A stretch of DNA of 49,500 nucleotides, the filler included, from Bipalium vagum (lineage: Eukaryota), in the NCBI GenBank assembly GCA_037834085.1. It is 2 parts of 2 records of this genome, joined end to end, with 100 filler letters (N's around TTAATTAATTAA, not from the genome) between each part and the next. Parts side by side here need not be neighbours in the genome. Positions count along the whole stretch, not along the records: positions 23,090 to 49,500 come from JBBMKC010149285.1; 1 more part is not named here. One strand, 5' to 3'. The translations under genes and the position numbers were made by a program. The notes below the pieces were generated by a model. The model was not told where the DNA came from and searched no databases. It saw nothing but the letters and a program-made list of their open reading frames with translations. Of this stretch, positions 5,245 to 46,744 are shown piece after piece. Every line of letters starts with the position of its first letter. Positions within the stretch are counted from its first letter, which is position 1.

Positions 5245-5579
5245 TTATTATTATTACTTTTTTGTATTTGAATAAGGCGAACTTTATATTATTTTTTTAC
5301 ATTAATTTATATATATCATTACATTATTCTTAGATAATGAAAAATCTATAAATTACCTCTAAATATTTTCAACAAGTATATTCAGTCTTAACGTATTTAA
5401 GAAGATAATAATTATGTATATGTAACTTTAAAAATTTATTATTTTTAATATATATTTTAAAACATAACTAAAGCTAAGCTAAGATTAATTTATATTTTAA
5501 ATACAAAAAAGGTAACAATTAGATTCTATGCGATTTTATATTGATATATATTGATATCGTAACATTTTTTCAGTTTGAC

Positions 5580-6038
5580 ATGGAAAAAAGCCCACTGGAA
5601 TCGATTTCCAATAACATATCCCAATATCAGAACAGTTCAAGAATACATTCAACGTCTTCTGATACCAGTAAAAAATGGCAACCTAGTTTAAAACCTCAAC
5701 CAAATGACCCTGCTCACAATGAAAGTCAAAAGAACTATATGAATAATCTCGAAAGACAATATCTTCTCGCAGTCGAAAGAAGTGACATGAACACCATTAA
5801 AAAGTTTCTTGAATCGAGTCAACAAACGGGATTTAATATTAATTGTCGTGATGCTCTTGGACGGAATGCCATTATGATTGCTATTGAATGTGAACATATT
5901 GAGCTTCTAGAATTCCTTTTAAAATATGATTTGAACTTAGGAGATGCTCTTCTTCATGCTATCAGCGAAGAAAACCTGGAAGCTGTAGAAATAATACTAA
6001 ATGCTCAAGCAGAATATTCTCATGATAAAAAAGCTTCG
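5580..6038 (+). CDS. TRPC: TRPC coding exon 1 (ankyrin repeats)
   Basis: Acceptor ttttttcag ends at 5573, ATG at 5580, donor TCG|gtatct at 6039. An upstream exon is likely because the frame is open at the acceptor. Confidence 0.9.
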
Positions 6039-9000
6039 GTATCTTTTGAACATACATTTTTGAATGGTCTTTTATTAATCATTAAATAATAATTAATTTA
6101 AAGAACATTAAATTCATTTTGTCCTTTAATTGTGCGGATTTTTGTTCAAATTTATTTTTTGTTTTCCGAATTATAATGGTATAAGAAATGTGAAAAAACT
6201 GAAAATGCTGAAGAAATTATTTTTTATTTATATTTTTTTACTAACCAAACCAATGATCATGCATCACTTCTGAACCATACATGGCTAAATCATATTATTT
6301 TACCATTGTTTTTTGTTAACTTATCCTATTATAAAATCGAGGTTAATTAAATATTTATGAATTTAATATTTCTCATGTTATATAATATTTTTGAATCTAG
6401 ATTTACATAAAGATTTTTTCATTAGCGGAGCGTTTTATTGGAGCAAATTGATCTTAATAGCGACCATTTTCGTTAAACATAAATAATATACTATATAATT
6501 ACAAAAGTAAAGCTAAAAATACTTACTTTGAGATTAAATTAGTCATTTAAAGCAAGAACAACATGCTGCAGGTAATTCGAATGAGATCCAAAAATTGTTT
6601 TGCAAAAATCATTATATTAACAAAATAATTATTTTAAAAGTTAAAAAATTAAGTTTTGTTTAAATATTCTAATTTATATTAAAACTGACAATATTATTAT
6701 TTGAAAAATATGTTATGATAATATATTAAATAATATAATTACAAATTTAGAAACTTACAACAATAAAATAAAGAGCAAATTTTAGAGAAAATAAATAAGT
6801 GGGGTATGCCGCCAAAAGTCAAGAATGCACGGATTGCGCAAATAATAATGAAAATCACAGTGAAAATGTTATTATTTTTCGATTTCTTATGCCATTACTT
6901 AACCACAGAAAAAGAAATTTTAAAAAAAATTCAGCACAAGAAAAAAAATTTTCTTAAAAATTATTTCCGCAAAATCTTTTTTCCTGTTTCAGTCTTCTGG
7001 TAATATTCAGTAACCAAAACACTGAAAACCAGTTAAGCGAAGTCTACTTCATTAATAAATTTTTAACTAATTAATTAAATTACTGTTTTAGCCCATTTAA
7101 TGTGTAAATTGTCAATTCAGGATTCAGACATGTCCCATTTAAATAATTGGGCAGTCTCAAAATCGAATGATAATGCTGATAATAATGACAGCTCTTTTCA
7201 TTTAGGTTTCTCTTGTTAAATTAACAATTCTTTCAACTTTCTGACAACAATGATCACTAAAAAATGTATTTCTTCTGTATAGGCATGACCTTATGACATT
7301 GTTGTAACCATCACCGTTATCATAGAAAATAAATAATTTTTCTTTTTCCTAAAATCAATAAATCGAAAAAGAAATAAAAGAATAGTTAATTATATTTTTT
7401 GATACCCACTATATATAGAGATGCCTAATGTAAAAATGATTAAAAACAAATATAGAAAATTGGCTTCGATCCATATAAAATCTGTTCAATAATTTCTTCA
7501 CTAACGACAATTTTAATTGAAAGTGAATTAATGTTTTTTTCATTACCTTTGTTGAAAAAAAATTAAAATTATTTATTTATAATTTCCAGAGGTTGATATT
7601 TTCTCTGGTAATTAAATAAATTTCTTCTTGAAAGTAATTTCATGTTTTCAGCATGATACAGATAAATTAAGACTCCATTAAAACATTTTTTAAAATAAAT
7701 ATCATTTTTGAAATATTTTTATCAAATTTAATTCGATATGGATCTCATTTACCAAATTATTTTATATTTAGAAATTTAGAAATTTTAAGAAAACAATTCA
7801 ATGAAGAGATTCCATCAAATATTACAAATTTTGTATTATCATTATTATTATTTATATTATTATTATTTATATTATTATTATTTATATTGTTATTATTATT
7901 TATATAATTATTATTATTTATTGTTATTATTATTATCATAATTTTTATGTTTATTATTATTATTATAATTATTTTTTTATTATTGTTATAAATATAAATA
8001 TAAATATTATTATAGTTATTATTGTTATTATTTTTTTATAATTATAATTATTGTTATTATTATAGTTATTATTAATAAATAATTATTTTTATAATTATTT
8101 TTATTATATATTACTCTTTATATCTTTATATCTTTTACTTTATAATTGGTTTTCATTGAAATTTTATAAATCAGACAAAATTTAATTCGATGCTAAAGTT
8201 TAGAATTTATAAGATATTTTTTAAAAATTTTGAAATTAAATTATAATTTTTGAATAAAATAATAATTTTATAATTGTATAAAAATTTCCTCATATAATCA
8301 AGCTTGTTTCTTAATTAAAATATTTAAATTTATAAAGCGTATTTTTCTTTTGCCATTTCAAATGAAAATTAAAAGTTCATGCTCATCGATTTGAAAAAAT
8401 ATTAATATAATCAATATTATCAAAGAGAAATGTTGAAAAGGGATAAAGGGATAAATGTTTACCAGAGAAAAATAATCAAGAGATAAAAGTTGAACTCAAG
8501 CAAAGTATTCTTCAGCTGTTATGGAGATCTTTTTTTTATGAAACTAATTTCTGGAAAACGAACTAAGGAATCGGCCTCAATGGGAACTATGTGGAAACTG
8601 ATATCTATTTTTACGTCTAGTTTGTAAATAAAAATGTTGATTTTTTTTAATATTTTTAAAATTTCAAAATGAAAAAAAATAAAAATATTTACCATCAATA
8701 TTATTTATTATATTTAATAATATTATTTGAATTTTAGGACAAAAATTTATACGACTTAGTTTCCGATTTGTTTTAATAAAAGAAAATGTCCAAAACATTT
8801 TTTCGTAATTTTTCTGATCAGGAAAGATTTTATTTTTGATAATTTTAGAAGTTTTGTTCAATTTATTTTTCAAAAACATTCTTTTACAAATAAAACGCTT
8901 AATAAAATTTGCAAAAAAATTATATTTCCCATATTTCGTAAAATATTTTTGTTTATATTTTACCGGGGTCTTATACTTCGCAGGCATATTATGCATCCAA

Positions 9001-12000
9001 CCCATCCAGCTCATTTACTCCGGATATTACTCCTCTGATTTTAGCGGCACATAGAGATAATTATGAAATTATTAAACTTCTTCTGGAAAGAGGTGATCGA
9101 ATTCCGAAGCCGCACGATCTGCGTTGTGCTTGCAATATTTGTACGGAATCTCAAAAGCAGGACTCCCTCAGACACTCGAAATCAAGAATCAATGCATATC
9201 AGGCACTGGCCTCACCATCCTTAATTGCATTGTCGAGTAAAGATCCAATATTGACGGCATTTGAGCTTAGTTGGGAATTAAAGAGACTGGGTAGACTGGA
9301 AAACGAGTTTAAGTCTGAATATGAAAGACTGTCAAGTAAATGTGAAGAATTTGCTCGTGCTCTTCTGGAACAAACCAGGGGATCAGAAGAGCTGGCAATA
9401 CTACTTAACCACAGCAATGGTTCATTTACCAACAAGACTCTCAACGACAGAAATGCGGATTCCCTTGTAGATACTCACGGCCTGGCCAGACTAAAATTAG
9501 CAATTAAATACAACCAAAAATCGGTTAGTTTCTCATTGTTTCGGAACCGTTGATTTAGAGCTTTCATAGAAATATTGATTGTTATTTATAAAAATATTTA
9601 TTAATAATTTTATTCCCTCTTTTACAAATCTTAAAACATAATTAATTTTTATTATCTGTGTTAAACTTTTGAAAGGAAAAAGTTGATGGGAAAGTAAATT
9701 AATTTTATCATGAAAAATTAATATAAATAACGATCCAATCTGTGCTCAGGTTTTTTTGTATTTATATTTGTCAGTTATTATTTATATTGTAATAAATAAT
9801 ATTAATAATTAATATTTTATCCATTTTTATTGCAATTATTATTGCTGAGAAAAATGGAAGAGATGCTCGTGAAGGTAAGCCAACCGACTTTTAATCATGT
9901 ACAAATTTCAGATCATGTTTCTATTGACCAATAAATTTTAACCTGGGGTTTTTTCGACATACAAGCCTTTATTTCAAAAAAACATTGCAGGACTTTTCAA
10001 TCAGAAGAAAATCTTTTTAGAGAAATTTAAGGTGTCTCTGAACAAATGTATTCAGTTAATACATGTATGGGGCCCAGATATTTTAGAAGTCACAATTTGA
10101 AAAATCTCGCGGCCTTTGTTTAAAGAATTAACAAGAAAAAAATTCAAACAAATATAGTAAAAAAATATTGTTAAATAAATTAGTTCTTTCATGTGACAGT
10201 GAAAATGTAGCTGGAAATCGATTTCAGATAATTTTTACGGTATTTGTCCAAAATTATTTCAAGAAAAAAATTATTGAAGAAATCCTTATATTGTACAACA
10301 AAAATCACATCATATTAGGTGTCCAAGTAAGTTCTGGCCGAATTCTTTTAAAAGAAATGAATTCAAAATTTTTAACTTCAGATATACAATGCAATTACAT
10401 GAATGCATTACATCAGTACTACATATAAATACTGTGTTTCACTTCATAAGTTTCTTTATCTTTTCTAAATCTAAATTTTCTTATGAAAAAGGTGATCGTA
10501 CGAATACTTTTTGCAGGTACTGTATATATTCATCAAAATATGATCAAATTTTATTACTTCTTTCCAATGTTTTGCACCTTGGTAGTTTAATTTTTATAAA
10601 AATCTTTTTTCTTACTAAGGATGAAATTGCACACTTCATTTTTAGATCCTCTTCAATAGCCAATGTCTTTCTCCTCAAATAGTTATCAAGATTAAGAAAT
10701 AAGTGAAACTCGGCTGTGGGAATATGGCGGATGTCACATGATCTCACATAAAGTTGCGTTTTTTTCCCCATGCAACCGAGCATTATTTTGAAGAAATAAA
10801 ACGAACGGCGGTGGTTATTCTACCAATATCAGTTGTTATTGTTCCGATTTTAGAAACTTATTATGAATGATTCCTTCACAAGTCCAACAGACACAGTAAA
10901 AGGTTTAACTGGAATATTCTAGCCTTTAGAATTTGTGTTAGGAGAAATAACCAATGATGTATTCTCTTTGGTTTAGTGTGCATTACATCATCGAGTGTCA
11001 GTATTCTATGGAAAAATGGCTTTATTCTTAGCCGACTACGATGAAAGGTCACATTATCAATTACTAACATCTATTCTCTGACATTAAGTTATCTGGAACC
11101 ATTTGTTTCTTTTGCACCTTATTCCAATCTGATGCATATGGAATCTGATATTTTCTTCGTTGAAATTAAATTTCAAATCAATTTTCTTACATGTTTGACT
11201 TAAATCTTATCGGATTGTTTTTCTGAAATCAGTAATGTTTATATTAACCGGTCTCTCAAATCTCGTTGCACCTTCCATATTTCATAATCAAAACAAAATT
11301 TCTCAAACCAAACATGAGCAGTTCTTTTCTTTACTATACTTATCCAAATACTGAAAAAAAATTTTCAATCAGTTTCTGAGGCTTCGAATCCGAGTTTAAA
11401 TTTATACGGTAAGTAGGAACGCATGATTCAGTTTCTGTGCACAATTTGGACTACTAAAAAACTTAAAATATCAATTAATAATAATTGTTTTAAATATCAG
11501 GTTACATTTTTAATTTAAAGTAATCTAATAAAACAAATTGATTTTCTGAGGAATAAAAAAATATTTAATTAAGTTTTAGAACCATCCATAATACATGTAA
11601 ATATCAATAAATGTTTTAAAAATCATTTTATATTATCAAGCCTAAATTTACTTAATTTTTTTTCAAAAAGTGTTTTCTTTTTAGCAACTGGCTCTTAGAA
11701 AATATTACAATTGTGATATATTTTTAAAAACGAAGGTTTAAAAATTGAAATGTTTATCTTAACTAAAAATTATAATATAAAATTTATTTATGTTGGAAAA
11801 TAAATAATTAAATATTAAATTGAATCACGATATACTTTAGTTCCAATTATTATTATTATTATTAAAAATATTAAAGAAAATAAAATATTCACTTTCAAAG
11901 AGAGTGAAATAAAATTTTAATTAATAATTTTCCGATTTCGGTTAAATATGTTTATTTAATATTATAATTTTGATGAATGTTTGGATAAGAACGACATCAA

Positions 12001-23089: not shown

Positions 23090-24085
23090 ATTATTATTAT
23101 TTATGCATTATTTATCATTTTTATTATTTATTTTTCCCCGGGGGGGTGTCTTGGTAAACCCAACAATACCAAATAATAGGAGAGGAAAGAATCTAATTAG
23201 TACATATTAAAAGCTAGAGTTTTCAAGTCCATAGTTTTATTTATTGCAAATAAAAGTTTTCAAAATTAAATTATCACATCATTGGAGTTTCACTTTATAA
23301 GCTTAAAAAGGATATTGAATTGATTTAATTGTTTTACTATCTTAAACAATTTTAATAAGTTTATTTGACAATTCTAAATATTTATTAATTTGTCATTTTA
23401 TTTTTTTATTAATATTTTTATATTATAATTTAACGTTTATCTTATGATTTTAAAATAAAAATCACTTATACTGTATACGTACTCTATATGCACACATAGC
23501 TCCAGAATGTATTAATTCTAAATGACTAGGTCAAGTAGAAAAATTTAGCTCCAGTTTCAGACAATCTTTATGATTTTTTTATTATTTAAATGAAGAAATG
23601 CTGATCGATTGAGACTCTTTATTTCCACATACTATTATTCTACATAATGTATATCAAAATTTTTTTTACTGAACATTTGATTTTGGAGTTCTTGACTCAA
23701 TCCAATTTTACTCTTTAACCCGTTTACATTAACTTTTTACTTTTCTATTATTCATTTTTTTATTTAAATTTAATCTTTATAATAAAATATTATTTAATTA
23801 ATTGACTTTTTTGACCTATTGTTGGCTTTATAATTTTTTTTACATTAAATATATTATTAAATAAATTATTATATTATTTTAAAAAATATTTGATAAAATA
23901 TTATCTAATTAATCGATTTTTTGAAATACGATTGACTTTATTGACAAAAATTGCCATGTTCATAAGTAGCTTCAAAAACTAATTAAATAAAATTTTTTAG
24001 ACAATTCAATTTATGAAAATGTTGAGTTAAAAATTAAATTAAAATCCATTTATTACAGTTATCAAAATAGGAAGTTATCACTTAC

Positions 24086-24311
24086 TCGTAATATTGCTCG
24101 GTTGGAGACATCTTATAGGCACTCTCAAGGAGATGTTGAGTCTTATTGAAACCGTCAAAACAAGTATTATTATCATTCCAGTAATTTCCACAAACACTCC
24201 AAGGTAATTTACTCGTAAAACTGGAAACCAGATAAAACAAGCAATGTGCAATGATTACGTTGTAGTAGAGTGTTAAGTACCATGTTATCATAACCATTCC
24301 ATAGCCGACAC
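24086..24311 (-). CDS. SLC6: SLC6 coding exon 3 (TM3 and EL2 with two cysteines)
   Basis: tttaaag|GT GTC GGC TAT...TAC GA|gtaagt; YYNVIIA and [11 protein letters not shown] motifs. Confidence 0.93.
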
Positions 24312-27300
24312 CTTTAAAAATGAATATTAAAATATAATGAATTAATGCGAAGAAATTTGTGAATTGTATTGAGTTAAATCAGTTGTCAATTCAATTTTGT
24401 TAAAATATATTTCTCAACTTGTGGGATATGAGATTCTTCACATCCTGTTTAGAATAATAGAAAAATCAATTAACTTAGAAAATTAAAGTACCTTTCCCCC
24501 TTATGAAAGGTCGTTATTTTCTTTTGATCTTAATTTTGAATAATTTAGTTATTTTTTGTTAAATATTAACGATATGCATATAAAATTCCGTTGTTTTAAT
24601 TATTTAAATTTAATAAGAATTAGTTTATTTAAAAATAGCTCAATTACTGAGTGTTCGTAATTTAAGATATTGTTCTACTAATTATAATATTTATCTTGGA
24701 TTCTTTGATTTCTGGTGTGAATTATTGTTTAAAATAAATTATTTTATGATAAAAATACCTTAAGTTTTTAAACTTTCCTTGTTGAATAGTTTTAATGTTA
24801 TTCTAAGTACTTGCTTTTCACGTTTCATGCTCAATTTGCAAGAATATCTTAAAATTTTCAAAAATGTTAAGAATTTTTGTGACATTTTTCTTACAGAAAC
24901 CTGTATTTCAATCCCTCTTGTAAATTTTTTCATCTTAAGAGTCGAAAGACATAAACATACCGATCTTTATAGCATTTTTATTTCGAAATTTTTAACCTAA
25001 AAGACAATGCAAAATCGACCAAAATAAGTGATATTCAGAGGTTTTGTATCTGGGGAATAAGGATCAAGGGAAATATCATCCAAATATAATTCTGCTGAGG
25101 ATTATCATAACTAATAAGTTTTATAAAATAAAATTATATATTTTAAACTCTAAAAGACCTGGTGGATAATTACTTTCCCCAGGTTAAGAATGAAAATAAC
25201 TGATTTGCCCTAACAGGGTTACATAATAATTAATTTACTTTTCACCCGAGTACGCTTTATAGTTATTTCTATCCGATTTGGACTGAAATTTCATTAGTTC
25301 GACTGATTAAGATTCAAAATTTCTTACTCCTAATTGGGCTGTTCAGAAAAAGATTACTCTTAGTTCTCAGACCCTGTGTTCATTGGCTGAAGAGGATCAT
25401 AAAAGCTTTCAGAATTAACACGCTACAGTAATTTGAGTTGAAATTCCACATTTTTCAATGTCGCAGAGTTTCGAAATACAAGTATGAAGGATATTTGTTA
25501 TAAGGTGTGATCGGGAATAAGAAACGGTCGAGATTCTCATTGGTGAGATCGCTTTATAATTATTTGTTGTTTTTATTATTTCTGGAAATTGACGAAACTG
25601 AAATTAAAGGAAAGAAATATTTAAATATATTATCTGGCATTATTAAAAATCCTAGTAAAATATTTGTGTTAAATGTGAAACAGGTGGTAAATCTTTCCGT
25701 TGACATTGAACTTATTCTGACTTATTTAGATTTAACACAAAAATAGTATTAACCTCCATCAGGTTATTCTAATAATCACGGGTGCTGCCAAATATGGTTA
25801 ATACTAAAATATGATCAAAGCACGTAAAGTGTTAAGTTTTCAAAGCAAGTTTTTTTCATGTAACATGTCCTGCGGATTTAAATCATGATTGTTCATGAGA
25901 ATAAGGACAAATTATTTTAATGTTGATAATTGTATTTCAAGAATTAAAGCAATCATAATAAAAAATAAATTCGATGCAAACTATTTCAAACATATAGGAA
26001 AGTCTCTAGAAGTTATCTTTACTCGATGGTCATAGTGCCTGAAAGCTGCATTATATTATTTGAAGAACTTGCCCGTTATTAAATCTATAGTTAATAATTT
26101 TGGGGTGGTGGGATATTAAATAAATGAGCTAAAGAGGCGTTAAGGAATGAAAACTTAGTTTCTGAATTATTGGAAATATTAAAAAATTATCATGTTCTAA
26201 TTGATATTTCAGATAAGTTTGAAGACTTAGAATATAATATTTAAAGTGGATAATACGATATATTTAACATAAATTTAGGATTAGATCCAATAGATCTGAG
26301 AAGCTATCTGCATAAAATATTAGAAGACAATGGAATATCCGATCTGCTAAAGTTTAGTAAAAAAAGAAGAATCTCCAATTGAATATTCTTATTTAAAATA
26401 ATTCCCACTTGCAAGTATTGTGGTAGAGTGAAGTTTTTCTAATTTAGAAAATCTCCTAACTAACCAAAGAAATGTTAACAGCGATAATATTTTTCACAAT
26501 ATTATAATATATTTGATGAATCAAGTTTGTATTGTAATAATTATTTTTTAAATTTTAAATGCCACTTCAATAATAAATGTCATTTTTTAAGTGCTATTTT
26601 TAAATTGCCCTACTCATTACAAATCAGAAATATTCAAAAAAATCTAATCACACCAGTTGAATCATGTGTTACAAGAATAGTACGCTAAAATTATATACCT
26701 TCTTTGAGTTTTTTGAACCATCTCGATACAGTTTTTTGTTGGTAGTATTCTAACCTTCAACTGCACAGATTTTGGCTGCAGTTGCTTGAGCGCTTAATCT
26801 TTGTTTCCATAAGAACCTAATTACTGCTCCAAGCACTATTTTTATCCATGTTATCAAACAAAATTACCGCAATTATTGATATATTGAAATAAAAACAACA
26901 TCATATTCGTATTATGTTATGACAATTAACCTTGAAATGTTTACTATATTTGATTAGCAAAACAACGAGTATTAAAAAAATAATCGACAAATAATGATGG
27001 TGATAACGTATCATAACATGTGGGACATCCTAATATATTTAGTATCAATATTAACTACGTTTTTATGTTTTTTCTTCTGATTCTAATTTTTAAATCATTA
27101 ATGGATTGTTTGGCAAGTGGATAATGAAAATAAATTAATTAATAAAATAAGAATTTTTAATTCATGATAAATTAAATCGAAATAAATTGCTACTCGATTT
27201 TAATTTTGTCTACTGTTAGACTGGATTTTGTCTTTTCAATCTGTTCGAAATTTTTTCCAGAAATCTTTGGTAATCTCAACAGTTTTTCTCCTTTTGAGAG

Positions 27301-29433
27301 GATTCGTTCCTAATTTATATTGAACTAAATCAACCCATCTAAACTACAGAAACATTTATGTAATGAAACATTCACAAAAACAACAATCATGGGTCACAAT
27401 TTATGTTCATCGTAAATGGATATTACCACTTGTCTTCGTCATCTCTTCCCTATTCCTCTTAGCTCTGGCAGGATCAAGTTCTCTTTTCGATTTTTCGATT
27501 CTATCCTATCTCTAATTTATATCTTGAGCCGTTATCTTGAATCTTAATATCACCAGCTTCTATTCTTTACTCTTTAGTGTGTTGTACATGAATATCCGCT
27601 AGAGAACTTACCATTCTTATTATTTTTCCCTTCTTATTAATTTTGATGCTTTTTTTCTCTCACTTGATGATCCTCCTAATAATTTAATGTCTTCCGTGAA
27701 TACAATTGCATCTTCTTTCACCTCTTGTTTTTCCGTTTTGTTAAATGTTACGGGTATTTCCTATGAAATAGTCTCATTATTGGTCTTTCCGGTGAAATCC
27801 GTCCTCACCACCGATACTCCTTTCCGAACAATATGTTCAATAAGTTTCTCAAACGATACTTACTTTTTGTCCCATGACTCCGCATACGAATAAGAATTCA
27901 GAAATTTCCTACTTTTTCTTATTACCTTATTATATTACGAAAGTTTTCATATTAATATAAAGCGTAACAATAAAGTTACTTGTAAAAGTAAAAATTCTTA
28001 ATTTTGTTAGACAAATTGGTTGATTATAACGAATAGTTTATTATATGAATAGTGACTATAACTGAAGTAATACGCCAGAAAAAAAATTAAAATTTGGGAC
28101 TTCACAAACTGTTGATTATACTCGTTACTTATATACGAAATGATTAAACAGAGAGTAGGCCGTATATTATAATATTTTGATGTTAATAAATTGTTCATCC
28201 TTTCTTCCTTTTATATGTTAATATGGTTATATTTTCTAAATCCAGCTTGTATCCAAAAACTATCATATATGATCGTCAACTAAATAAAAGCCAGATAAAC
28301 ATTATCATCAATATTCAAAAGCTTAGAGACTATAATTACCCAGAGTAATTAGAATTACTAGAATTCATCAAACTGGTCGATTATGTAACATATCTAGAAT
28401 GTGTTGACACTGAAAAATGAAAAAACAATACTATAAAGGAAATTTCCGAAATAACGCTTTATAAAATTATAGTTAAATAATTTGTAAGTGGAAAAATATA
28501 TAGTATTCATTTTTTTTGTAATGTACAGTCTCCATAATCAAATGAAGAGAAGCACTTTTAAATAATAATAATTTTCGTGTCAAAAAATATATATATCAAT
28601 AATTTATTAATGGATTCTAAATTAGTTTTGATGAATGGGATATCGAAATTATAAGATATTTTAATTCGGAGATTTCTATGATTCTTTACCTATAAGATAA
28701 ATAAATTAAATTATAATTTTAATTAAATAATAATAAAATTATGGGAAACAGAAGCTTCGTAGAAATGAGTACCGAATTACTTGTTTTCAGAAATAAAATA
28801 AGATCAATACTAAAATTATTTATTGGATAATAGTCTTAAAAAGTGATGAGAAATGAGTAGACATTTCTGAGAATCTAATCAATATTAAATGATTATTTTT
28901 CTATAAATACACAGTTCTAATTTATAAATTCTCGAGATTGACATAGGCATCAAATTTTAAATACAAAATTTAAAATTAATATTATTTTTAACTCATTACC
29001 CTTAAATAAAGGACTTATAATCCAGCAAGATATAGGACCAAGACTTGAAAATTGACCCAAGGCAAACTCCAGAAAGAAAATTGGTAGTCCCACACAGACA
29101 AGCATCAAACAATATGGAACCAAAAATGCTCCTAAAATGAAAAAAATTTAATGAATTCATTAAGGAATAATTTTTTATAAAAGAATTACTAACTGTTTTT
29201 TAAATAATCTTGGATAGTTAAATGATAATTGTTATTATTTTTTATATTACAGACTTACCACCACCATTTTTATAAACTAGATAGGGAAAACGCCACACAT
29301 TCCCAAGACCAACAGCAAAGCTTATACAGGTAAAAATAAAGTCGATTTTGCCACCCCATTCTCCTCTTTCAAGTTTTTGACGGTCATATGTTATCTTAAA
29401 AACTTCACCTTCTGATCCCAACATTTCAAACAT
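24086..29433 (-). CDS. SLC6: SLC6 Na+/Cl- dependent transporter, amino-acid branch (proline/glycine transporter-like), 5' part; coding exons 29259-29433, 29000-29131, 24086-24311; 3' exons absent
   Basis: The spliced protein [38 protein letters not shown]|[44 protein letters not shown]|VGYGM...YYNVIIA...[11 protein letters not shown]...SPTEQYY is the SNF family signature. GT-AG junctions are in phase. Confidence 0.95.
26640..27034 (-). mobile_element. Mariner relic (5' end)
   Basis: Minus strand [13 protein letters not shown]; TIR-like CATAACATGTGGGACATCCTAATA at ~27012-27035. Confidence 0.55.
29000..29131 (-). CDS. SLC6: SLC6 coding exon 2 (TM2)
   Basis: ttttag|GA GCA TTT TTG GTT CCA TAT ... 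TTT AAG G|gtaatg; 132 bp, phase 1-1. Confidence 0.93.
29259..29433 (-). CDS. SLC6: SLC6 coding exon 1 (TM1)
   Basis: ATG at 29433 (an acceptor at 29443 with open frame means the true start could be upstream); donor G|gtaagt at 29258. Confidence 0.9.
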
Positions 29434-30679
29434 TTCAGTATACTAAAACATGAATGAATACTATACATGAAGAATGTATTTTGCTTATGCAAAGTTAAAT
29501 ATTTATTTATTTATTATTTAAAATATTTATTTAAAATATTATTTTTGTTTAACACCCATAATAAATAATAACGTTATATTTTTACTTAAATTATTACCAC
29601 TACAATCGTAAAGCATGTGAACAAGTGGGATTGAGTTTATTCTTATTGGAAGTTACTGAGATATAAAAAAGTTTATTTAATTGTTAAAATCTAAAAATTT
29701 ACCAATTAGAGGCTATAAAAATAATTTGGATAGTTATCTTGAATGTCAAAATAATATTTTTCTTCTCTAACTACCATTAACACAATGTAAATATTATCAT
29801 CTTTTTGATTCATTTTATTTGAAAAGCGGAAAAAAATATTAAAAACTTATTTTCCATATGTAATTTTGAAAATAAACATACCGGCTCTTTTTGCAATAAA
29901 ATTCGATCACTAAGTGTAATATGTTGAAGAGGACGACTATCGATAACGATTTTCTGTTGATCTTGTTGCTTGGGTATAGATCCTTTAGTATTAAGTTCCA
30001 TGTTTATGTTTGAACACAATTTCAAATTCAACTATATCAAAGACGCAATTTGTAAAATTAAGTACGAAAATAAAAAATTGATTATTTCTATTGAATTTAT
30101 ATCAAAATATTTCATAATTGTATCGTTTTTATTGGTTGTTGTAACTATGTTGAAAGTGTGTATCTGATTTGACGAGAAAATATTTGCCCAGAGGAAGAAT
30201 AGCAATCTATCCAAACGTGAATGTTTAGTAATAAATCGAAACTCACAAGATGAATGCAATCCAGATAGATTTATTTAGGAAATGTATATTATATTTTCCT
30301 TTTTCTTATATGGATGAATAGAAATGCTGAATTCCTGGAGTGTAATTATTTGAAATTTGATATCAATTTAAAATTATAGTTTTTGTTAAACTACTTACAG
30401 TTTTATACTGAAAGCATTACAAATATTGATTGAATTTTTCAGTTTTAATGAATATTACGATAGATTTTCAGATATTCATTTATTAAAATAATATTAAATA
30501 AAATAAGGTAAATGTTAATATTCATGGGGTCTACAAATTGAAAAGGTGCATATTTTAAATAACATTACATCAAGAGATTTATTTTATAAATATATATATT
30601 TCTACAATATTTAATTAAAAGTCATTCTGTGAAATAATCTCTATTATTGTCGAAGTATTTTAACCATTTTTCAAGTAGA

Positions 30680-32069: not shown

Positions 32070-32639
32070 TAATACCAAGGGCTTGGTATACATTACTTCA
32101 ATAGGTGGATGAGTCACGTGGGCCAAGGTCGGGTTTTGGGTTGTTCCTCAATGAGTGTTCGATCCAATAAAATCATGATGAAAAATACACTGCCTGCAGC
32201 GCATTGATTCTTCTTGATTAAATCCCGGAGCAACAATATAGCACTAAAATATCGTCCTCTAAACATTGTGAGCGGGAGAGATATCCACTGTAGGCTCTGC
32301 AAAACTACGATGTAAGCACAAGCCCGTGTGCTAAATCATTGCCACGCCCGGCCACACCAACCAAAAGCGAAACACAATCACGTAACGCTGCTGTTCAACT
32401 TTCTAAAGGACTCGGGATTGGACGTAGATATGGATGTATATCCACATGAGGTGAAAACCACACTACGACCAGACTTAATTTTCAGATCCAATTACAAGAA
32501 AGTTATAAGTCTCATCGACCTCATAGTGCCATATGATGAGCGTAGTAACTTCTCTGAAGGTCGTAAAAGAAACCAGAAGAAATATGAGGGACTCACTAAG
32601 CAAATAGCACTTAATTGTAAACAAAACCTATATAAGTAA
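32070..32639 (+). mobile_element. RLE-type (R2/R4/NeSL-like) non-LTR retrotransposon, 3' ORF relic
   Basis: One frame reads ...HVGQGRVL...FFLIKSRSNN...CRLCKTTM*AQARVLNHC (degenerate CCHC knuckle) ... KHN ... LRPDLIF ... LIDLIVPYD ... KRNQKKY, the PD-(D/E)xK restriction-like endonuclease; internal stops. Confidence 0.8.
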
Positions 32640-35781: not shown

Positions 35782-36640
35782 CGGGGTGGTCAAAAAGTTA
35801 GTATACAGTTACGTTTAAAATAAATTTATTTACAAAAACGTGTATAAAACTATTTACAGATGATTTCCTAACACAAAACATACACAGATTAATGTTTAAC
35901 ACAGTTTTATCAACGTGTATCTTCAAATTGCTTGCCCTCTGCTTTTATCATTCTTATAAATCTGGAGGGCACACTTCAAAAAATCTTTCCATAAATCTTT
36001 GTTTGCAACAATATCACGTAATGCTTCAGAAATGAAAAGTTTGAGATGAGAAAGGGTTTCTTTGCATACACTAGATTTTTTACAATTCCCCAAACGCTGA
36101 AGTCCATTGGAGTCAAACCTGGAGAACAAAGATGGAGTTATATGGGACCATGACGTCCAATCCACTTTGTTTAAAGATTTCATCCAGATAATTCCTAACA
36201 GCCTATGCAAAATGCGGAGGAACACCATCCTGTTGAAGAAAAAGTGTTTCAAAGTCATCACGTAATTGTAACTGCAGTAATTGCAATCGTATTTCTCAAA
36301 GCTTTCAGGTAAATAGTATCAACTACTGCCCATTCAAAGAAAATAGGTCGTATAATTTCAGATGAAGTAATACAAGTCCAAACCGTGATGTCTGGTTGGT
36401 TTAACTGACACTGGATAGTTATCTGAGGGTTTTCTGAACTCCAATAGACCGAATTATGACGGTTAGTGCCATTCACTAAGCTTAAATTGAGCCTCATCAG
36501 ACCAGATTATTTGGTGTAAAATTTCATGATGGTCCATAGCTTCGCTAGTAAAGATTTCCGCAAATTGCAATCGACGATCAGGATTCTCTTCTAGGAGTCC
36601 ATGTAGAAGACGTGGTCTGTGCGGTTTCATTTTCTAGCTT
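35782..36640 (-). mobile_element. Degenerate Tc1/mariner transposon of rosa (DD41D)-like type
   Basis: TA|CGGGGTGGTCAAAAAG TIR-like end. Minus-strand motifs IWSDEAQF, NRHNSVYWSSENP, LQQDGVPPH, LTPMDFSVWGIVK. Indels prevent an exact spacing count. Confidence 0.8.
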
Positions 36641-36968
36641 TGCCAAAGAAATGGTAAGACATTGTCAACCAATGTGGTGCATATGTAATTTAATAAAGTT
36701 CTAAAATTATCTTAGTACTCTTACGTTTTTCATATTGCAAAAATCGGCGGAAACGTTTCAGACAATCCAATATATTTATTATAATTTTACTATTTTTAAC
36801 TAAACTTATTGTTATGAAAATAGGAAAAATTATAAAATTTAATTATTTGCATTCATTTATTTTTTATAAACATTTATTTCATAAATTCTAATCTTAATGC
36901 ATTCCTAATTGTTATTCATTTTTTCCAGAAAGAATGTAGAAAAAGTTGCTATTGAATAATGAAAATTT

Positions 36969-38876
36969 TTAGGCTAATTGAGGAGTAAGACACCAGTGCA
37001 TACTGTAATCAAGGGATCTTACACATTTCCGTAAATTTTCAGTATTAGGAGCAGCTAATATAATTATATTCTTCAAAAATCCACACTTAGGTACCTTAGA
37101 ATAAATCTCAATATCACAATTATGACGATCACAAATGGCTTTTATTCGCCTATCAGATGGATCACGCAATATTTGCTCAATATTGGCACTCTCCGGAACA
37201 TAAAATTTATGTTTAATAACTTTCATGGTGCAGTATTTCGCTCTTACGGTATTGCGACTACATGACTGGTTTGTTTCTTTAGCATTCGTTATTTTATTTG
37301 ATTTACATCGATCAAATGAAACTGTTCTTTTTATTTTATTATTTTCATTGGGTGTAACGCAGACTTTGTCGCTTAAGCTGGAATTCCTAGCGGTTTTTTT
37401 AGTTTTTTTAGAATCGTAATTGATGGAATAAGGAAAATTGTTTCTTGTCGGCGATTTTGGAACTTGGTTATCAATCGAATGAGGTGAATATTCAGGAGTC
37501 AATTGACAGATATTTGCCGGATTATCAGTTCGTTCATTCTGGTTTTGTTGAAAAGAATTTAATAATGATATTGGAGGAATGTCTTCATTACTTATTAAAC
37601 TCGTGTTTTTACCCATTCGTGAATGTTTCATTAAAAATTTTTGTTTCTTACGCAATGCATTAAGATTATCCGATTCGGAAGACTTTGGTTGTTCATATTT
37701 TTTTAATTCTTCAGATCCTTTCATGAATGTTACAGTGGCTGCAGTACTTTTATTAATCCTTTCTGAAGCACATATACTGTTGTCATTAAAACCCTTATCG
37801 AGAGAATTAGATATAGATTTGGGCTTTCCGGACTGATTAGATTGCTGTAAAAATGCTTGGATAAAATTACTGTTTGGAATTTGATTTGTTCTTGATAATC
37901 TTTCATTATTGAGATTTTGTTTGTTCACATTATCATTACATTTTCTTTTCTCATTTTCCTCTCCATTGGTATCAGGTGTAATATCTCCACTATTTGACAC
38001 AAACATTGATTTATTATCTTTTATATTTCCAAAACTTGAATTAGAATCGCTACTTTGGTTTTCAGGCATTTCATTTGGTCCTTCAGTCAAAATACGAGAT
38101 TTTCCAGTCCCACTACGAATTAAACTATCTTTTATATTAGTTTTAAAGTCGCTTTGACGTGGTTGGCATATTGGATTAAAATTAAAATTATTACTAAATT
38201 TATAACTATTTTGATTTAGTGGTTCATTGTGCTTGTTACAGTTATCATTGTCTTCCATCTTTATGAGCTTCTCGTGTAAAGAATAATTTGATATGGTAGC
38301 TGACAAACTGTCAATATCATCTTCATAATATCTACGATTTTTTACATAATCATTACAAAAAGGCCTTCGAAAAAACTTAGAAGAATCTCTTAATTCCGGA
38401 GGTTCTTGAGTAATTGGAGTAAATACTTCTGGTTTCCTCTTAAATATTTCCACGTGTTTAAATGAATCGACACTGGCTTTTAATGGAACAATAGAATCAT
38501 TATCAGACGATCTAATTTCCTTATGAAAACGATCATTCAATGTTTCTCCTCGTTCTATAAAATGATTTTGTGAAAGATATCCTGAATAATCAACATGATT
38601 TTCAATAATATTTTTAATGGTTGCTTCACTACACTGCACGCCTCTAGACACTACAACATGTCTATGGGCTTGATATCCTGGATATCGTTTAAAGCAGCAT
38701 TGAGCATTTCCCATTAGGGTATCAACTACATTATTCTCCTCGCTAGGTCGTTCAACTGGAACGTTAAATAAATGTAAATTAGTTAATAAATCAGAATTTT
38801 CAGAAAAATCGTCAAAATTAGTGGCACTGTTTAGCTCTTGTATTTCTGCAAGAAAATCAACGGCATATTTAGGCAT
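36969..38876 (-). CDS. Uncharacterised 635-aa single-exon protein; N-terminal eIF4E-binding-like motif, N/S-rich low-complexity middle, C-terminal KH-like domain
   Basis: A 1.9-kb stop-free frame in strongly AT-rich DNA; first in-frame ATG at 38876. The C-terminal ~83 aa (HKFYVPESANIEQILRDPSDRRIKAICDRHNCDIEIY...IIILAAPNTENLRKCVRSL) follows the KH type-I beta-alpha-alpha-beta-beta-alpha hydrophobic pattern by eye. The product call is inference. Confidence 0.85.
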   Translation of the reverse strand: MPKYAVDFLAEIQELNSATNFDDFSENSDLLTNLHLFNVPVERPSEENNVVDTLMGNAQCCFKRYPGYQAHRHVVVSRGVQCSEATIKNIIENHVDYSGYLSQNHFIERGETLNDRFHKEIRSSDNDSIVPLKASVDSFKHVEIFKRKPEVFTPITQEPPELRDSSKFFRRPFCNDYVKNRRYYEDDIDSLSATISNYSLHEKLIKMEDNDNCNKHNEPLNQNSYKFSNNFNFNPICQPRQSDFKTNIKDSLIRSGTGKSRILTEGPNEMPENQSSDSNSSFGNIKDNKSMFVSNSGDITPDTNGEENEKRKCNDNVNKQNLNNERLSRTNQIPNSNFIQAFLQQSNQSGKPKSISNSLDKGFNDNSICASERINKSTAATVTFMKGSEELKKYEQPKSSESDNLNALRKKQKFLMKHSRMGKNTSLISNEDIPPISLLNSFQQNQNERTDNPANICQLTPEYSPHSIDNQVPKSPTRNNFPYSINYDSKKTKKTARNSSLSDKVCVTPNENNKIKRTVSFDRCKSNKITNAKETNQSCSRNTVRAKYCTMKVIKHKFYVPESANIEQILRDPSDRRIKAICDRHNCDIEIYSKVPKCGFLKNIIILAAPNTENLRKCVRSLDYSMHWCLTPQLA

Positions 38877-39096
38877 AATGAACAACGACCATTTTGATCG
38901 TTGTTAAATTATTCCAAAAATAAATACAAATTGACAATAATACAAATAATTTTTATATAAATTATATTAAAAATTTTTCTATTGATGAATTAATAAAAAT
39001 CAATGCTGTAATCATTCGAACATATTTAATGTATTTTTATAATATCCCTTCAGAAATTCAATTAAATAAAATAATTGACCAATATCTTTAAGAAAT

Positions 39097-41010: not shown

Positions 41011-41501
41011 TTAAAAATGCAGTATAGATATTATTTTAAAAAATCTTCGAAATGTAAACATTAATATTTATCTGAGGATTAAATAATTTTTTATTTTTCC
41101 ATTTCTAACTTTTTTTCTTTTGTTTATTATTTTACACGCTAAGTGGGGCGGTGAAAAAATTTGTTTTTCTTCACTGAGGACCTATGAGCCCAAGAGCGAG
41201 AGGATTTGTCATAATAATAATAACCCTAATTAATAAAATCCTTTATCAATCAAGGTCGATATCAACGTTGTGTACATTGTCATATTATTTTACAAAAAAT
41301 ATAATTTTTAAACTAAATCGTTTTCTCAGTGATTTTAAATAACTTTAAATTAAAAATCAGCCTTCACCGTTAAGACCTAAATTAACAGCTCCACTTATTT
41401 ACACCTTTTTCAGGATCTTAACAATTATGAAAAAAATGTTCTCCTGTAATAGTATAAATTTCATTATGATTACAAAATTATTTGGTTCAGAATCATATAT
41501 A

Positions 41502-42786
41502 CGAGGGTGGGGTGAAAAGTTCTCGGCCTAACAAAGAAATAACAAACTTATTGACAAAAATTTTATTTATTTTTCAACATAGTCTCCTTGCAATTCAATA
41601 CATTTATTCCAACGATATTCAAGTCTTTTAATACCATCAGCATAATATGATTTATCAAGGGCTTCAAAATATGATTCAGTTTCACATTGAACTTCCATAC
41701 TTGATCTGAATCGTTTTCCTGCAAGCGACTTCTTCAAGTTTGGAAACAAGAAAAAATCACTGGGACCCAAATATGGAGAGTACGCTGGATGAGGAAGCAA
41801 TTCATATCGAAGTTCATGAAGTTTAACTTGTGCAACTGTTGAAGAATGGGCTGGTGCGTTGTCATGATGAAAAAGAACCTTTTTTCTTGCTAGATGAGAA
41901 CGTTTATTATTGATCTCGTCATTCAACTTGCTCAATAATGAAGCATAATATACTCCTGTAATGGTTTTCCGTTTTTCTAGATAATCAATCAATATTATGC
42001 CATTTGCATCCCAAAAAATGGTTGTCATGACTTTTCCTGCTGAAGGAAAACTTTTGCTTTCTTTGGTGCACTGGAACCTGCTTCTACCCATTGCTTTGAC
42101 TGCTGTTTTGTTCTGATGGTGTACCCATGTTTAATCAACAGTAATAAAACGCCGTTGAAATTCATTTGGATTCGACTGAAAAATCTGTAAGCTTTGAATT
42201 GACAGATTCATTCTTTGACGCTTTTGATCAATGGTTAGCAAACGCGGCACCCATCTTGCAGATAGTTTTATCATATTTAAATGGTGATGTATAATGTATC
42301 GAACACGTTCCTCTGAAATCTTCACAATATCAGCTAGTTCATGAATCTTTATACGACGATCATTCAGAACTGCATTGTGAATCTTTCCAATAATTTCATC
42401 AGATGTTGCTGTGCCTGGCCTTCCAGAACGGTCATCATCTTCAATTGATTTGTGACCACGTCAAAATTCAGCTGCCCATTTTTTTATTGTAGAGAATAAA
42501 GGAGCAGACTCACCAAGTGTTGAATTGATTTCATTTTTGATTTCCGTTGGACTTAAGCCTTTCAATACGAAATATTTTATCACAACGCGATGTTCCATTT
42601 TATCCATTTTTTGAAAACTGCAATTATAGGCGAATTCAAACAAGTGTTGCAACAGAATTATTTAAACAAATGAAATGAAAATCATAATACAATTACCTAG
42701 ATAATTATAATTATCAAAAATAAGATAGATTTTATTAAATTCATGTTTTTTCTTTATCAGGCCGAGAACTTTTCACCCCACCCTCG
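41502..42786 (-). mobile_element. Full-length mariner (DD34D, irritans/Himar1-like) transposon with a disabled transposase
   Basis: Perfect 28-bp TIRs CGAGGGTGGGGTGAAAAGTTCTCGGCCT (41502-41529 / 42759-42786) flanked by TA. Motifs WVPRLL, SAGKVM..FWDA.GII.IDYLEK, FHHDNAPAH, YSPYLGPSD. Stops at 42461-42463 and 42131-42133 plus a frameshift near 42100. Confidence 0.97.
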
Positions 42787-45117
42787 TACATACGTAAAAC
42801 ACTGTATAACTAGAATTATGAATTATAAATTTATATAATTTCTTATAAATATTAATTTTCTTTCATTAATAATTCTTGAAATATTAAAAAAGATCCTATT
42901 TCTATGATCAATAAAATCAATTCCTTTTTGTTGTTTTTGAAATGAGGAATTTCTCAAATATTCAGAAAATATTTTTTGATAAATAATTCTAAATCTTGTC
43001 TTTATATATTTTATTAATGAAAAGATATATTAATAATCCATAGGATAAATTTAAATTAAATATTTTATTAAAATTCCAATTAAAATTTTGTGAATATCTT
43101 ATTTATGATTTCTCTGATTTTCTGTCTATCTAATTGTGAATCCATATTTTTTTTTATAATTTTATTTATTTTAGTTATAGTTATTTCGGTTACTTTGGTA
43201 CTTTAGGACTTTTAGTTATATTTTAGTTTGTGTACGCTTATTCGTACTTTTTTACTGAAATCGTTATCGTTGTTTATTTTCGATTTTTTCTTTGTTGTTT
43301 TATTTTTTTGTTATTTTAGTTATTCTGGCTATTTTCTTACTAGTTTTTAAAAATGATTTTTTGAGAAATCCTATTAATTCTTAAAATTCCATTCTTATGT
43401 GATTTTTTTTTTAAAAAAAGTAAAAAATGAACCCATTCCTATACAAAAAATTTTTTCAAAAATCCTTTTTTTATATTTTTACACTACTCACCTGTTCCAA
43501 GCCAACCATTAGCTTTGAGAAGTTCACGATTCTGAACCCAATGGTCCGTTTTGTAGTTGCTAGCTCGATTGGCACCATCTATTTATGCAATCATTGGGTC
43601 TTAGCTCCGCAAATTTATAAAAAAATATTGTAAATGAAACTAAAATTATTAAACTAAATTAAGTTAACTTGTAAAAAATACAATTTTAAAAATTGGTTTA
43701 TTATTAATTAACTACTTTCTATTATTAATAAATAAAGATAATTTATAAAATCATTAGCTTTGAAATTATAAATCATTTATAAAGTATTTATTTCCTTCTT
43801 AAAATTTTGTGCAGATCAAAAATCAACATTTATTTTATAACACTTTTCTGACATCTGTTCGTTTAATTTCTAATTTCCTAGCTTTTTAATATTGTCTTGT
43901 TCATCACATTGGTTTTCCTTCAAATTAACTCAAAAACCTTTTAAGAGTTTCTTTAATATTATTAACATTATAGTATAAAATGTATAATAAATAATTAATT
44001 TGTAAAAATATTGTTAGAAATACAGTATCAAGATAAAATAAAAACAAATAAGATATTAGCTTATACATGTAAATTTGTTTGGCTGTAAATTATTATTATC
44101 CTATACTATTTTCACCAGGGTCAAGTGAGTTGATATGTTGCATAATAAAACTAAATATTAATGTTAGTAATGATTAATATTTCATTTTATTTAACTAAAA
44201 ATTATGTAAGGTTTATAAGCACTTTTCTAACCTTAGGAATATATAATTGAAATTTTATTGACATTAAATGCTTTTTAAAATTATCGGGACAATTGTGTAA
44301 TAATAATTTAATAATCATGTCCAATAATTAACTTTTATTAAAATTATAAAAATTAAGAGTAAATAAAAAATCACTTAAATTAATAAATTGTTATAATTAA
44401 TAAATTGTTATAATTAAAAAATTATTAATTCTGTAGAAGAACTGAATTGTTAGATCAAATACTTAATTGTCAAGTGCTTTATATAAAACTTTTTGAGCCA
44501 AGGAAAATATTAGAATTTTATGATGAGTTTAAAAAAGTATTCCTTAATTATATAAAAATTATAGATAATAAGAAAAGCTTTTAATACACTTCGAATGTGA
44601 TTGTTAAAATTATAATTATATTTCAATTTAAGCAAAATATTGAAATAAGTTTGGTCAGATTTTCACGATATTAGGTATTAAAATATAAAACGCAACCTTT
44701 TAATTTTAAATAACTCAATTATAGTATATATTTATTTTCATTTATAAATAAAGAATTTTAAGCGTGGAGATTTTAAAATTAGACAATTAGAATGTAAACT
44801 AAAAATTATTTTAAACTTTTTTAAAAAAATGTAATTTAAAAATAAAATTATTTAATCTTTGATTTAAGATATTACAATTTTATTTCTAGTATCATTTAAA
44901 ATAAATCTTATTAAAAATCTTCTGATTGATATTTTTTCTATTATTATTAAAAATATCATATAAAAAATTTAATTTACTAAGTTTTCTTGTAGGTTTATAT
45001 ACAAAATCTTAATATATTTTGATTAATGTTATCTTAATTTAAAATATTTTCATAAAATATTTTTTGTTGTTTTACTACATCAATTTTATTTTAATTAATA
45101 CGTAAAGATTGCCAACT

Positions 45118-46744
45118 ATGGGATGTAAGTTTACTTTCATTTTTGATTAATTAACTTAATCTTTTATAATGGGTCGTAAGTCAATTAATTTAAAGTAATT
45201 TTTCAAAATTTTATCTTTTAGTTAAATTCCTGGATTTGGTAAAACCTTTTTGCCAAGTTCTTCCTGAAATATCAAAACCAGAAAGGAAAATACAATTTCG
45301 CGAAAAAGTATTATGGACCGCTATTACTCTTTTCATATTTCTTGTATGCTGTCAAGTACCGCTTTTTGGTATAATGTCATCAGAATCAGCCGATCCATTT
45401 TACTGGATGAGAGTAATTCTTGCTTCAAATCGAGGCTCATTGATGGAATTGGGGATCAGCCCTATCGTTACATCGGGTCTAATAATGCAGTTATTGGCTG
45501 GTATTAAAATAATAGAAGTTGGAGACACACCTAAAGATAGAGCACTTTTTAATGGTGCGCAAAAATGTTAGGATTATATATACTAAATACTTAACTTTAT
45601 TTAATTATTAACTAGTATTTGGGATGGTTATAACTGTTGGTCAGGCAATGTTATATGTTATGTCAGGAATGTATGGTACACCTGGAGAGCTAGGAGCAGG
45701 AGTTTGCTTACTTATTGTTTTTCAAGTAGCGATTTTCATAAATTAAAACTACTTACAATTTTTTTATTCAACATATAGCTCACGTTTGCTGGTTTGCTCG
45801 TTTTAATGTTGGATGAGTTATTACAGAAAGGTTATGGATTAGGGTCTGGAATATCTCTTTTTATTGCTACAAATATTTGCGAAACAATAGTTTGGAAGGC
45901 ATTTAGTCCAACAACAATCAACACTGGTCGAGGAACAGAATTTGAAGGAGCAATAATTTCTTTATTTCATTTGATGGCCACAAGAACTGATAAAGTCAGA
46001 GCACTTAGAGAGGCTTTCTACCGTACAAATCTGCCAAATTTGATGAATCTATTAGCGACTGTTCTCGTTTTTGCTATTGTCATCTATTTTCAAGGATTCA
46101 GAGTTGACTTACCAATTAAATCCGCTCGGTACAGAGGACAGTACAGCTCTTATCCAATCAAACTGTTCTACACAAGCAATATACCGATAATATTGCAGAG
46201 TGCTCTTGTCTCTAATCTCTATGTGATTTCGCAGATGCTTTCCAACAAATTTCGCGGAAATCTAATCATAAATCTCCTTGGAACGTGGTCAGATGGAGAG
46301 GCCGGATCGCGATCGGTTCCCATAGGCGGAATTTGTTACTACATGTCACCTCCGGATAGTTTAACGGCAATGTTTCACGACCCAGTTCATGGAATAATCT
46401 ACATTGCATTTATGCTTGGAAGTTGTGCATTTTTCAGTAAAACGTGGATCGACGTGTCGGGATCGAGTGCAAAAGACGTAGCGAAGCAGCTGAAGGAGCA
46501 ACAGATGGTTATGAGAGGTCACCGTGAAAAATCAATGATTCACGAACTTAATCGATATATTCCCACGGCTGCTGCTTTTGGCGGTCTGTGTATCGGTGCT
46601 TTGTCAGTACTAGCTGACTTTTTGGGAGCTATTGGTAGTGGAACAGGTATCCTGCTGGCCGTTACTATAATCTACCAGTATTTCGAAATATTTGTCAAGG
46701 AGCAAAACGAAATGGGTGGCAGCATGAGTACATTGTTGTTTTGA
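45118..46744 (+). CDS. SEC61A: Protein transport protein Sec61 subunit alpha, complete, 475 aa; exons 45118-45124 (or alternative 45169-45175), 45222-45566, 45616-45725, 45779-46744
   Basis: Highly conserved Sec61a motifs ([108 protein letters not shown]). Introns of 97/46, 49 and 53 bp are all GT-AG and in phase. Confidence 0.98.

Follow-up and report, generated by a model that had tools for sequence, protein, structure and literature searches.

The window, a stretch of 49,500 nucleotides of Bipalium vagum DNA, encodes a 635-residue protein that we read, with a probability of roughly 0.5, as a flatworm adaptor that has two start codons, an LC8 site, a lipid anchor that can be switched on or off, and a KH fold with an acidic loop. 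The two start codons of a single open reading frame (ORF) would give a short form from M55 and a long form from M1. The M55 form would be myristoylated and palmitoylated and thereby held at a membrane, whereas the M1 form would stay soluble, its extension masking the glycine. An LC8-type dynein light chain would pair both forms as dimers, and the KH-fold domain at the end of a disordered tether would grip a protein partner, not RNA.

Translation of the window gives an uninterrupted ORF of 635 aa for the long form from M1 (36969..38876, minus strand), confirming the 635-aa protein of the original prediction. It opens with MPKYAVDFLAEIQ, an in-frame stop lies 10 codons upstream, and the Y4 codon begins at 38867, where this tyrosine had been placed. 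The hexamer AATAAA, a sequence common in AT-rich DNA, occurs twice past the stop, at distances of about 90 and 110 nt (36856..36878, minus strand), and both copies are candidate polyadenylation signals. The locus is spanned with 0 differences by a single 2,601-nt contig from the sole DNA run containing it; since this run may be the source sample, the match is not independent support. The gene is present in one copy within the window, and a metagenome scan for related loci gave 26 pattern matches, 0 of them confirmed.

The surroundings are AT-rich eukaryotic DNA with intron-split neighbouring genes and mariner elements, and no evidence in this analysis links the neighbouring genes to the 635-aa protein. 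The neighbours comprise the exons of a TRPC-type TRP channel with ankyrin repeats and a TRP_2 domain (5523-9553, plus strand), those of an SLC6 sodium:neurotransmitter symporter (24082-29442, minus strand; SNF match for 24082-24378, other exons by eye), and Sec61-alpha (SecY match; 45194-46744, plus strand), which has a long exon of 321 codons. A near-complete mariner element at 41496-42792 has 49-nt terminal inverted repeats that are 92% complementary, and a stop breaks its transposase at about 42131. A decayed Tc1/mariner-like remnant (about 35800-36720, minus strand), multi-copy by read depth, lies immediately downstream of the gene for the 635-aa protein, with further remnants of this kind near 13.5, 30.8, and 40.6 kb. 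An ORF at 32316-32639 (plus strand), for which a Pfam match is absent, includes an RPDL...IDLIVP stretch, which we take to resemble the restriction-like endonuclease of non-LTR retrotransposons.

The conserved, compact part of the protein is its last ~83 residues (residues 553-635; 36972..37220, minus strand), and these are predicted, with high confidence, to adopt a type I KH fold. The AlphaFold2 model based on the family alignment (A2, described below) reaches a pLDDT of 81.8 and folds as beta-alpha-alpha-beta-beta-alpha with a short terminal helix. The top Foldseek ranks are KH domains of FUBP1, MINA-1, and hnRNP K (best E-value 6.7e-4, TM by target about 0.7), and most of the top rows in a wide VIA search are KH domains, with Z-scores of 7.0-7.8 and an rmsd of 2.2-3.9 over 66-80 residues. 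In VIA, the KH domain of MINA-1 comes first (rmsd 2.4, 76 aligned residues) at Z 7.8, a value in the range that the tool calls common, a Z below 8 not being decisive alone; as rows within 1 Z count as tied, VIA does not single out MINA-1. The KH-like C-terminal domain of the original prediction is thus supported by the structural comparison. Pfam gives no family for the window protein even at an E-value of 10, its KH family is absent in 49 further homologues at E 0.1, and searches with protein parts and homologues return weak unrelated matches only. The PDB sequence search, with the single sequence and with a profile, yields 0 matches.

A search with the last 92 residues against 1.84 billion representatives gave 53 matches, from which P0049 and P0050 were excluded as repeat proteins in which only about 30 residues matched, several times. 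Alignment A2 accordingly has 52 rows, made up of 51 homologues (50% clustering) and the window protein. All 12 homologues that could be named, directly or via a cluster member, among the 24 of 51 looked up belong to the Platyhelminthes (Fasciola, Fasciolopsis, Dicrocoelium, Trichobilharzia, Mesocestoides, Dibothriocephalus, Hymenolepis, Protopolystoma, and Macrostomum), and none of those 24 was named from outside the flatworms, which supports the earlier proposal of a lineage-specific protein. A profile search restricted to proteins of 1,865-5,000 aa, a range outside which non-flatworm proteins of normal length fall, found no relative, and two bacterial hypothetical clusters in the ESM Atlas, at 0.80 and 0.77, are leads only. 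A tree computed from 82 columns has poor resolution; in it, all 12 proteins beginning with MP[KR]Y fall in one 25-row group (support 92/95, below the star of the tool), separate from most of the MG-starting paralogues. Open-access text searched for flatworm-specific KH domains, accession or locus names, and MINA-1 with GxxG contained no paper on the family. The "helicase" label on the Macrostomum protein P0048 was rejected, as it has no Pfam match. P0056 from Fasciolopsis buskii is 1,489 aa long and shares a 90% cluster with the 678-aa P0017, possibly reflecting a fusion or a merged gene model.

At the position of the GxxG loop, the window protein reads D572-P-S-D575 (37152..37163, minus strand), in a register that is our own sequence reading, counted back from the downstream I-K. 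Asp is invariant at both loop positions in 52/52 rows, with Gly at neither in any row. The original prediction had recognised the loss of the loop glycines, but the residues in register are DPSD and not the RDPS it had named. A third acidic residue is often present (DPDD in 12 of 52 rows), and DPxD in the loop may be only a helix cap. The helix-loop-helix has a median net charge of 0, and R576, R577, R584, K594, and R620 are near-invariant across the domain alignment. With DxxD at the GxxG position in every row, the KH-fold domain probably lacks canonical RNA binding, and it likely binds protein instead. GxxG-less KH domains serving as protein platforms are known from GLD-3, the KH-like domains of BICC1, PARP14, and the oocyte SCMC KH proteins, mostly in tandem KH arrays or together with enzymes. 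In the accessible part of PMC3413153, KH domains without the GxxG loop are associated with lost nucleic-acid binding and with extensive contacts to proteins, and a GDDG substitution impairs nucleic-acid binding. For the di-KH of KHNYN, the available excerpt of PMC11997328 gives RNA binding as undetectable and proposes the domain as a protein site. The flatworm domain is like KHNYN/N4BP1 KH1 in combining a KH fold with the loss of the glycine loop, but it is a lone KH borne by a disordered tether that has an acylation motif, and no sequence similarity between them was found. The predicted fold and topology are those of the type I KH domains of FUBP1, hnRNP K (KH3), PCBP2, and MINA-1 (254-334), from which it differs in its invariant DxxD, in an identity of 12-25%, and in being single and C-terminal.

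The second feature of the protein is M55-G-N-A-Q-C-C (38694..38714, minus strand), a likely second start with a myristoyl/palmitoyl-type motif that would open a short form of 581 aa. It is preceded by an acidic, Met-free N-terminal extension of 54 aa (38715..38876, minus strand). In 12/12 MP[KR]Y proteins, the second Met is followed by G-N and then by a Cys within seven residues. The 12 extensions are in frame, acidic, and 34-111 aa long, with a median linker identity of 25%. They contain 0 Met in 1,015 residues against 16.7 expected, Met being the sole residue type absent, and the nine less related ones contain 0 in 751 against 12.3 expected, counts that give no exact probability because the rows are related. 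The MG site occurs in 32/52 rows, 18 of the 52 beginning directly with MG, and some MG-starting members retain the downstream QC motif. A PROSITE-type myristoylation pattern fits 28 of the 32 MG sites, 21 of the 32 have a Cys at positions 3-10, and GN follows 0 of 458 other internal Met residues; our motif patterns were composed after viewing the alignment, and the shuffles ignore shared descent. MGNAQCC itself fits the myristoylation pattern, which is relevant only if M55 is a start.

The site is absent in 20/52 rows, some of them probably fragments. A clade of five proteins of 491-550 aa (P0026, 29, 30, 31, and 34) has no N-terminal motif at all. In P0003, with 66% identity over the domain, CC and the QC motif persist but MPKY and MG are both missing; in P0005, MGN is present and QC absent. 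The context of M55 has a C at -3, which is not ideal, and the stretch from M1 to M55 contains two out-of-frame ATGs. An out-of-frame upstream ORF (uORF), MVVVHYA and stop, starts 16 nt before M1 in the context aaaATGg and overlaps the M1 codon (38869..38892, minus strand). A splice-acceptor-like ttgattttcttgcag lies within codons 6-11 (38846..38860, minus strand); it is the sole such site in the 1,908-nt ORF and a weak signal, being no more than the window background of 0.93 per kb yields. Splicing there would eliminate M1, making M55 the first in-frame ATG. As a guess from one species, either of these features, the uORF or the acceptor-like site, could favour M55 or set the ratio of the two forms.

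N-myristoylation requires an N-terminal Gly, so the 54-aa extension would turn the anchor off. These sequence features are most simply read as selection for a pair of N-termini: in one, Gly is exposed for myristoylation, with Cys for palmitoylation, and in the other that Gly is masked. We expect that both start codons would be used, and a short form, if made, would quite probably be acylated. The anchor motif MGxxxC[C] is like that of SH4-type dual acylation, as in the Src family and plant CDPKs. Alternative initiation is an established route to a changed location in the available part of PMC13082882. In the N-terminal proteoforms of GRS1, c-Myc, and CDC20 described there, an upstream in-frame start adds a location-changing extension, as we propose here, whereas in the flatworm family both starts are AUG and conserved from the window protein to trematodes, and a conserved block of its own marks the extension. 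An extension that masks a myristoylation site is not among the cases in that part of PMC13082882.

The candidate LC8/DYNLL-type motif is VSRGVQCS (residues 76-83; 38628..38651, minus strand), with Q81 as position 0. It forms a conserved island in which S77, R78, and Q81 are retained by 92-100% of 12 relatives, the background being about 10%. Its flanks are mostly below a pLDDT of 50, placing it in a disordered region, as is likewise the case for the 8-residue motifs of LC8/DYNLL clients. The motif columns of the family read [IV]-S-[RK]-[AG]-[VTI]-Q-C, and the pattern [KR][GAS][TVI]Q[TC], composed after viewing the alignment, is found in 20/52 rows against 0.5 in shuffles. The density of strict sites is 7.1 per 1,000 aa within the first 110 aa that follow the MG site and 0.4 in the remaining linkers. 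Several paralogues have tandem sites, one of them a canonical RNRATQTE; the strict pattern is missing in 32/52 rows, and P0013 has QY.

The portion of PMC6607443 at hand describes a [TVI]-Q-[TVC] anchor with a small residue at -2, a basic one at -3, and a polar one at -4, rules that VSRGVQCS obeys except at +2, where it has Ser instead of D/E/P. The selected LC8 optimum in the excerpt of PMC3078936 is VSRGTQTE, the sequence also given for EML3 in the text available, to which VSRGVQCS is identical at 5/8 positions. GVQC is identical in the validated binder gephyrin (EDKGVQCE), which together with Ana2 (STTGTQCD) is a listed binder with Cys at +1 in Table S4 of PMC6607443. The near-fixed Cys at +1 in the flatworm motif is rare among known clients, occurring in 2/79 binder and 2/32 non-binder rows of that table. 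LC8 anchor motifs often do not bind, and only 7/19 predicted motifs bound in the part of PMC6607443 seen here. Judged by its residues, VSRGVQCS is a likely LC8 binding site.

Residues 96-549 (37230..38591, minus strand) are predicted to form a disordered linker, with a pLDDT below 50 over nearly the whole range, and are poorly conserved except for the EDDIDSLSATIS block. The original prediction had described an N/S/Q/K-rich, low-complexity middle; the Asn richness holds (13.4%, against 3.8-10.6% in the 13 relatives compared) and presumably derives from the AT-rich genome, but the linker is hardly low-complexity, with one 12-aa window only at <=2.2 bits, and Gln, at 4.5%, is not enriched. A prion-like or granule-forming N/Q-rich middle was rejected, as the composition is not conserved in relatives. 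This conserved acidic/serine block, EDDIDSLSATIS (residues 185-196; 38289..38324, minus strand), is letter-identical in the Fasciola gigantica protein P0006 and has related forms in most of a 14-row alignment; we offer a phosphorylation cluster as a guess at its nature. EDDIDS was rejected as a caspase site because the P4 Asp is not retained in relatives. The paralogues P0028, P0032, P0033, and P0036 have in common a conserved block LLxPPxxxDLARQ after the QC motif and, about 38 aa beyond it, a second TQT-like site. The trematode members P0007-P0013 (alignment A3) have R-S-[LF]-S-E-S-R-[IL]-P in common, with a faint match in the window protein near 326-334; to our eye, presumably, this has an SxIP/EB1-like or 14-3-3-like look.

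The original prediction regarded the protein as an eIF4E-binding translational regulator on account of the N-terminal block (residues 1-13; 38838..38876, minus strand), in which KYAVDFLAEIQ was said to match Y(X)4L-phi save for an Ala at phi. Relaxed Y-x4-L is present in 68% of 2,000 shuffles of the window protein, so the match is not above chance, and the canonical YxxxxL[LMFIV] is absent from the protein, phi being Ala in YAVDFLA. The block, with the consensus MP[KR]Yx[VI]xF[IVL]A[DE][VI], occurs in 12/52 rows and not in the other 40. Among the 12 proteins, Tyr is found in all, Phe at +4 in 10, and an aliphatic residue at +5 and +8 in all, a pattern loosely like eIF4G. However, +5 is Ile in six, Leu in three, and Val in three, +6 is Ala in 11, and the full YxxxxL-phi is found in 1/12 (P0004). 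The motif is thus not kept in the homologues, and of the two blocks expected to be conserved, the C-terminal domain is, while the N-terminal one is kept in a form other than YxxxxL. Mextli contains a KH domain, and the KH fold and the conservation of the block would suit a regulator of cap-dependent translation like Mextli, Cup, or 4E-T. Such proteins, and 4E-BP, are alike in being disordered with a Tyr-led hydrophobic motif; here YxxxxL-phi is not conserved, homology is undetected, and candidate acylation and LC8 motifs stand instead. According to the part of PMC3763552 available, the eIF4E motif occurs too frequently by chance and its structure is an extended stretch plus a short helix. Among the matches listed for the eIF4E-motif literature, planarians are not mentioned. 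The residue pattern and a low-confidence strand at 4-13 in the full-length model (pLDDT about 43; free protein, no eIF4E in the model) suggest a beta-strand. The protein is therefore probably not an eIF4E binder, and regulation of translation through eIF4E is a very improbable role. As it is conserved, the block probably binds something.

The remaining alternatives each retain part of the proposed anatomy. With the same N-terminus, the KH-fold domain could bind RNA non-canonically and the protein tether mRNPs to the membrane, for which the near-invariant basic residues, including the arginines directly after the loop, leave room, as does a fold matching RNA-binding KH domains, the best VIA match being that of MINA-1, an RNA-binding protein in the accessible part of PMC9704514. 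We consider this unlikely, given the Asp at both loop positions and the absence of Gly, the frequent third acidic residue, the net-neutral helix-loop-helix, the single KH with 0-3 RG dipeptides in the linkers, and the tie of MINA-1 with other VIA rows. About as unlikely is the use of one start only, be it M1, with GNxxCC as an internal palmitoylation site, or M55, with the MPKY frame as an untranslated leader or a splice-acceptor by-product. Internal di-Cys palmitoylation is possible without a second start, a 5' leader would likewise be ATG-poor, the acceptor-like site lies inside the MPKY block, and the MPKY rows are an ascertained set, since gene callers choose the first in-frame ATG. M1 alone leaves unexplained the conserved Met-Gly-Asn, which is the true first residue of paralogues, and the lack of intervening Met, whereas M55 alone leaves unexplained both M-P-[KR]-Y in 12/12 rows, among them named trematodes as well as the window protein, and the stop-free in-frame spacers of 34-111 codons. 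Finally, the QC motif could be a lipidation or redox Cys, or form a small beta-module with the MPKY strand, leaving an acylated adaptor with no dynein light chain partner. Cys stands at +1 in 20/21 matches though the pattern also permitted Thr, the hydrophobic strand of the MPKY class (R-x-[FV]-V) extends further upstream than LC8 requires, and residues 4-13 and 73-81 are both strands in the full-length model. These strands have a pLDDT of only about 43-64, however, the residues at 0, -2, -3, and -4 fit the LC8 rules in the portion of PMC6607443 at hand, and paralogues have TQT-type and tandem variants, so that we give this possibility very little weight.

The kinds of constituents of the preferred two-start adaptor are already known, namely, a GxxG-less KH domain, an LC8 client, and an N-terminal proteoform, and we could not match their combination to a described protein. 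We tentatively propose, at less than even odds, that flatworms have their own class of "acidic-loop" KH adaptors, LC8-dimerised and with the DxxD groove repurposed for protein, in one branch of which an ancient two-AUG switch has persisted in free-living forms as well as in liver and blood flukes and gives, from a single ORF, a form anchored by myristate and palmitate and a soluble form with a private N-terminal docking strand. The named members of this unannotated domain family, which is without a Pfam entry or a sequence-matched solved structure, include trematodes and cestodes as well as a monogenean and a free-living flatworm. As a natural case of GxxG-to-DxxD replacement, the KH domain would offer a direct test of what the KH fold does without its RNA loop, and the Met-free conserved extension would be an unusually clean signature of a lipid-anchor on/off switch operated by start-codon choice. 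The dynein light chain family is expanded in parasitic flatworms, and the candidate motif would make this protein a client of such light chains in flatworms.
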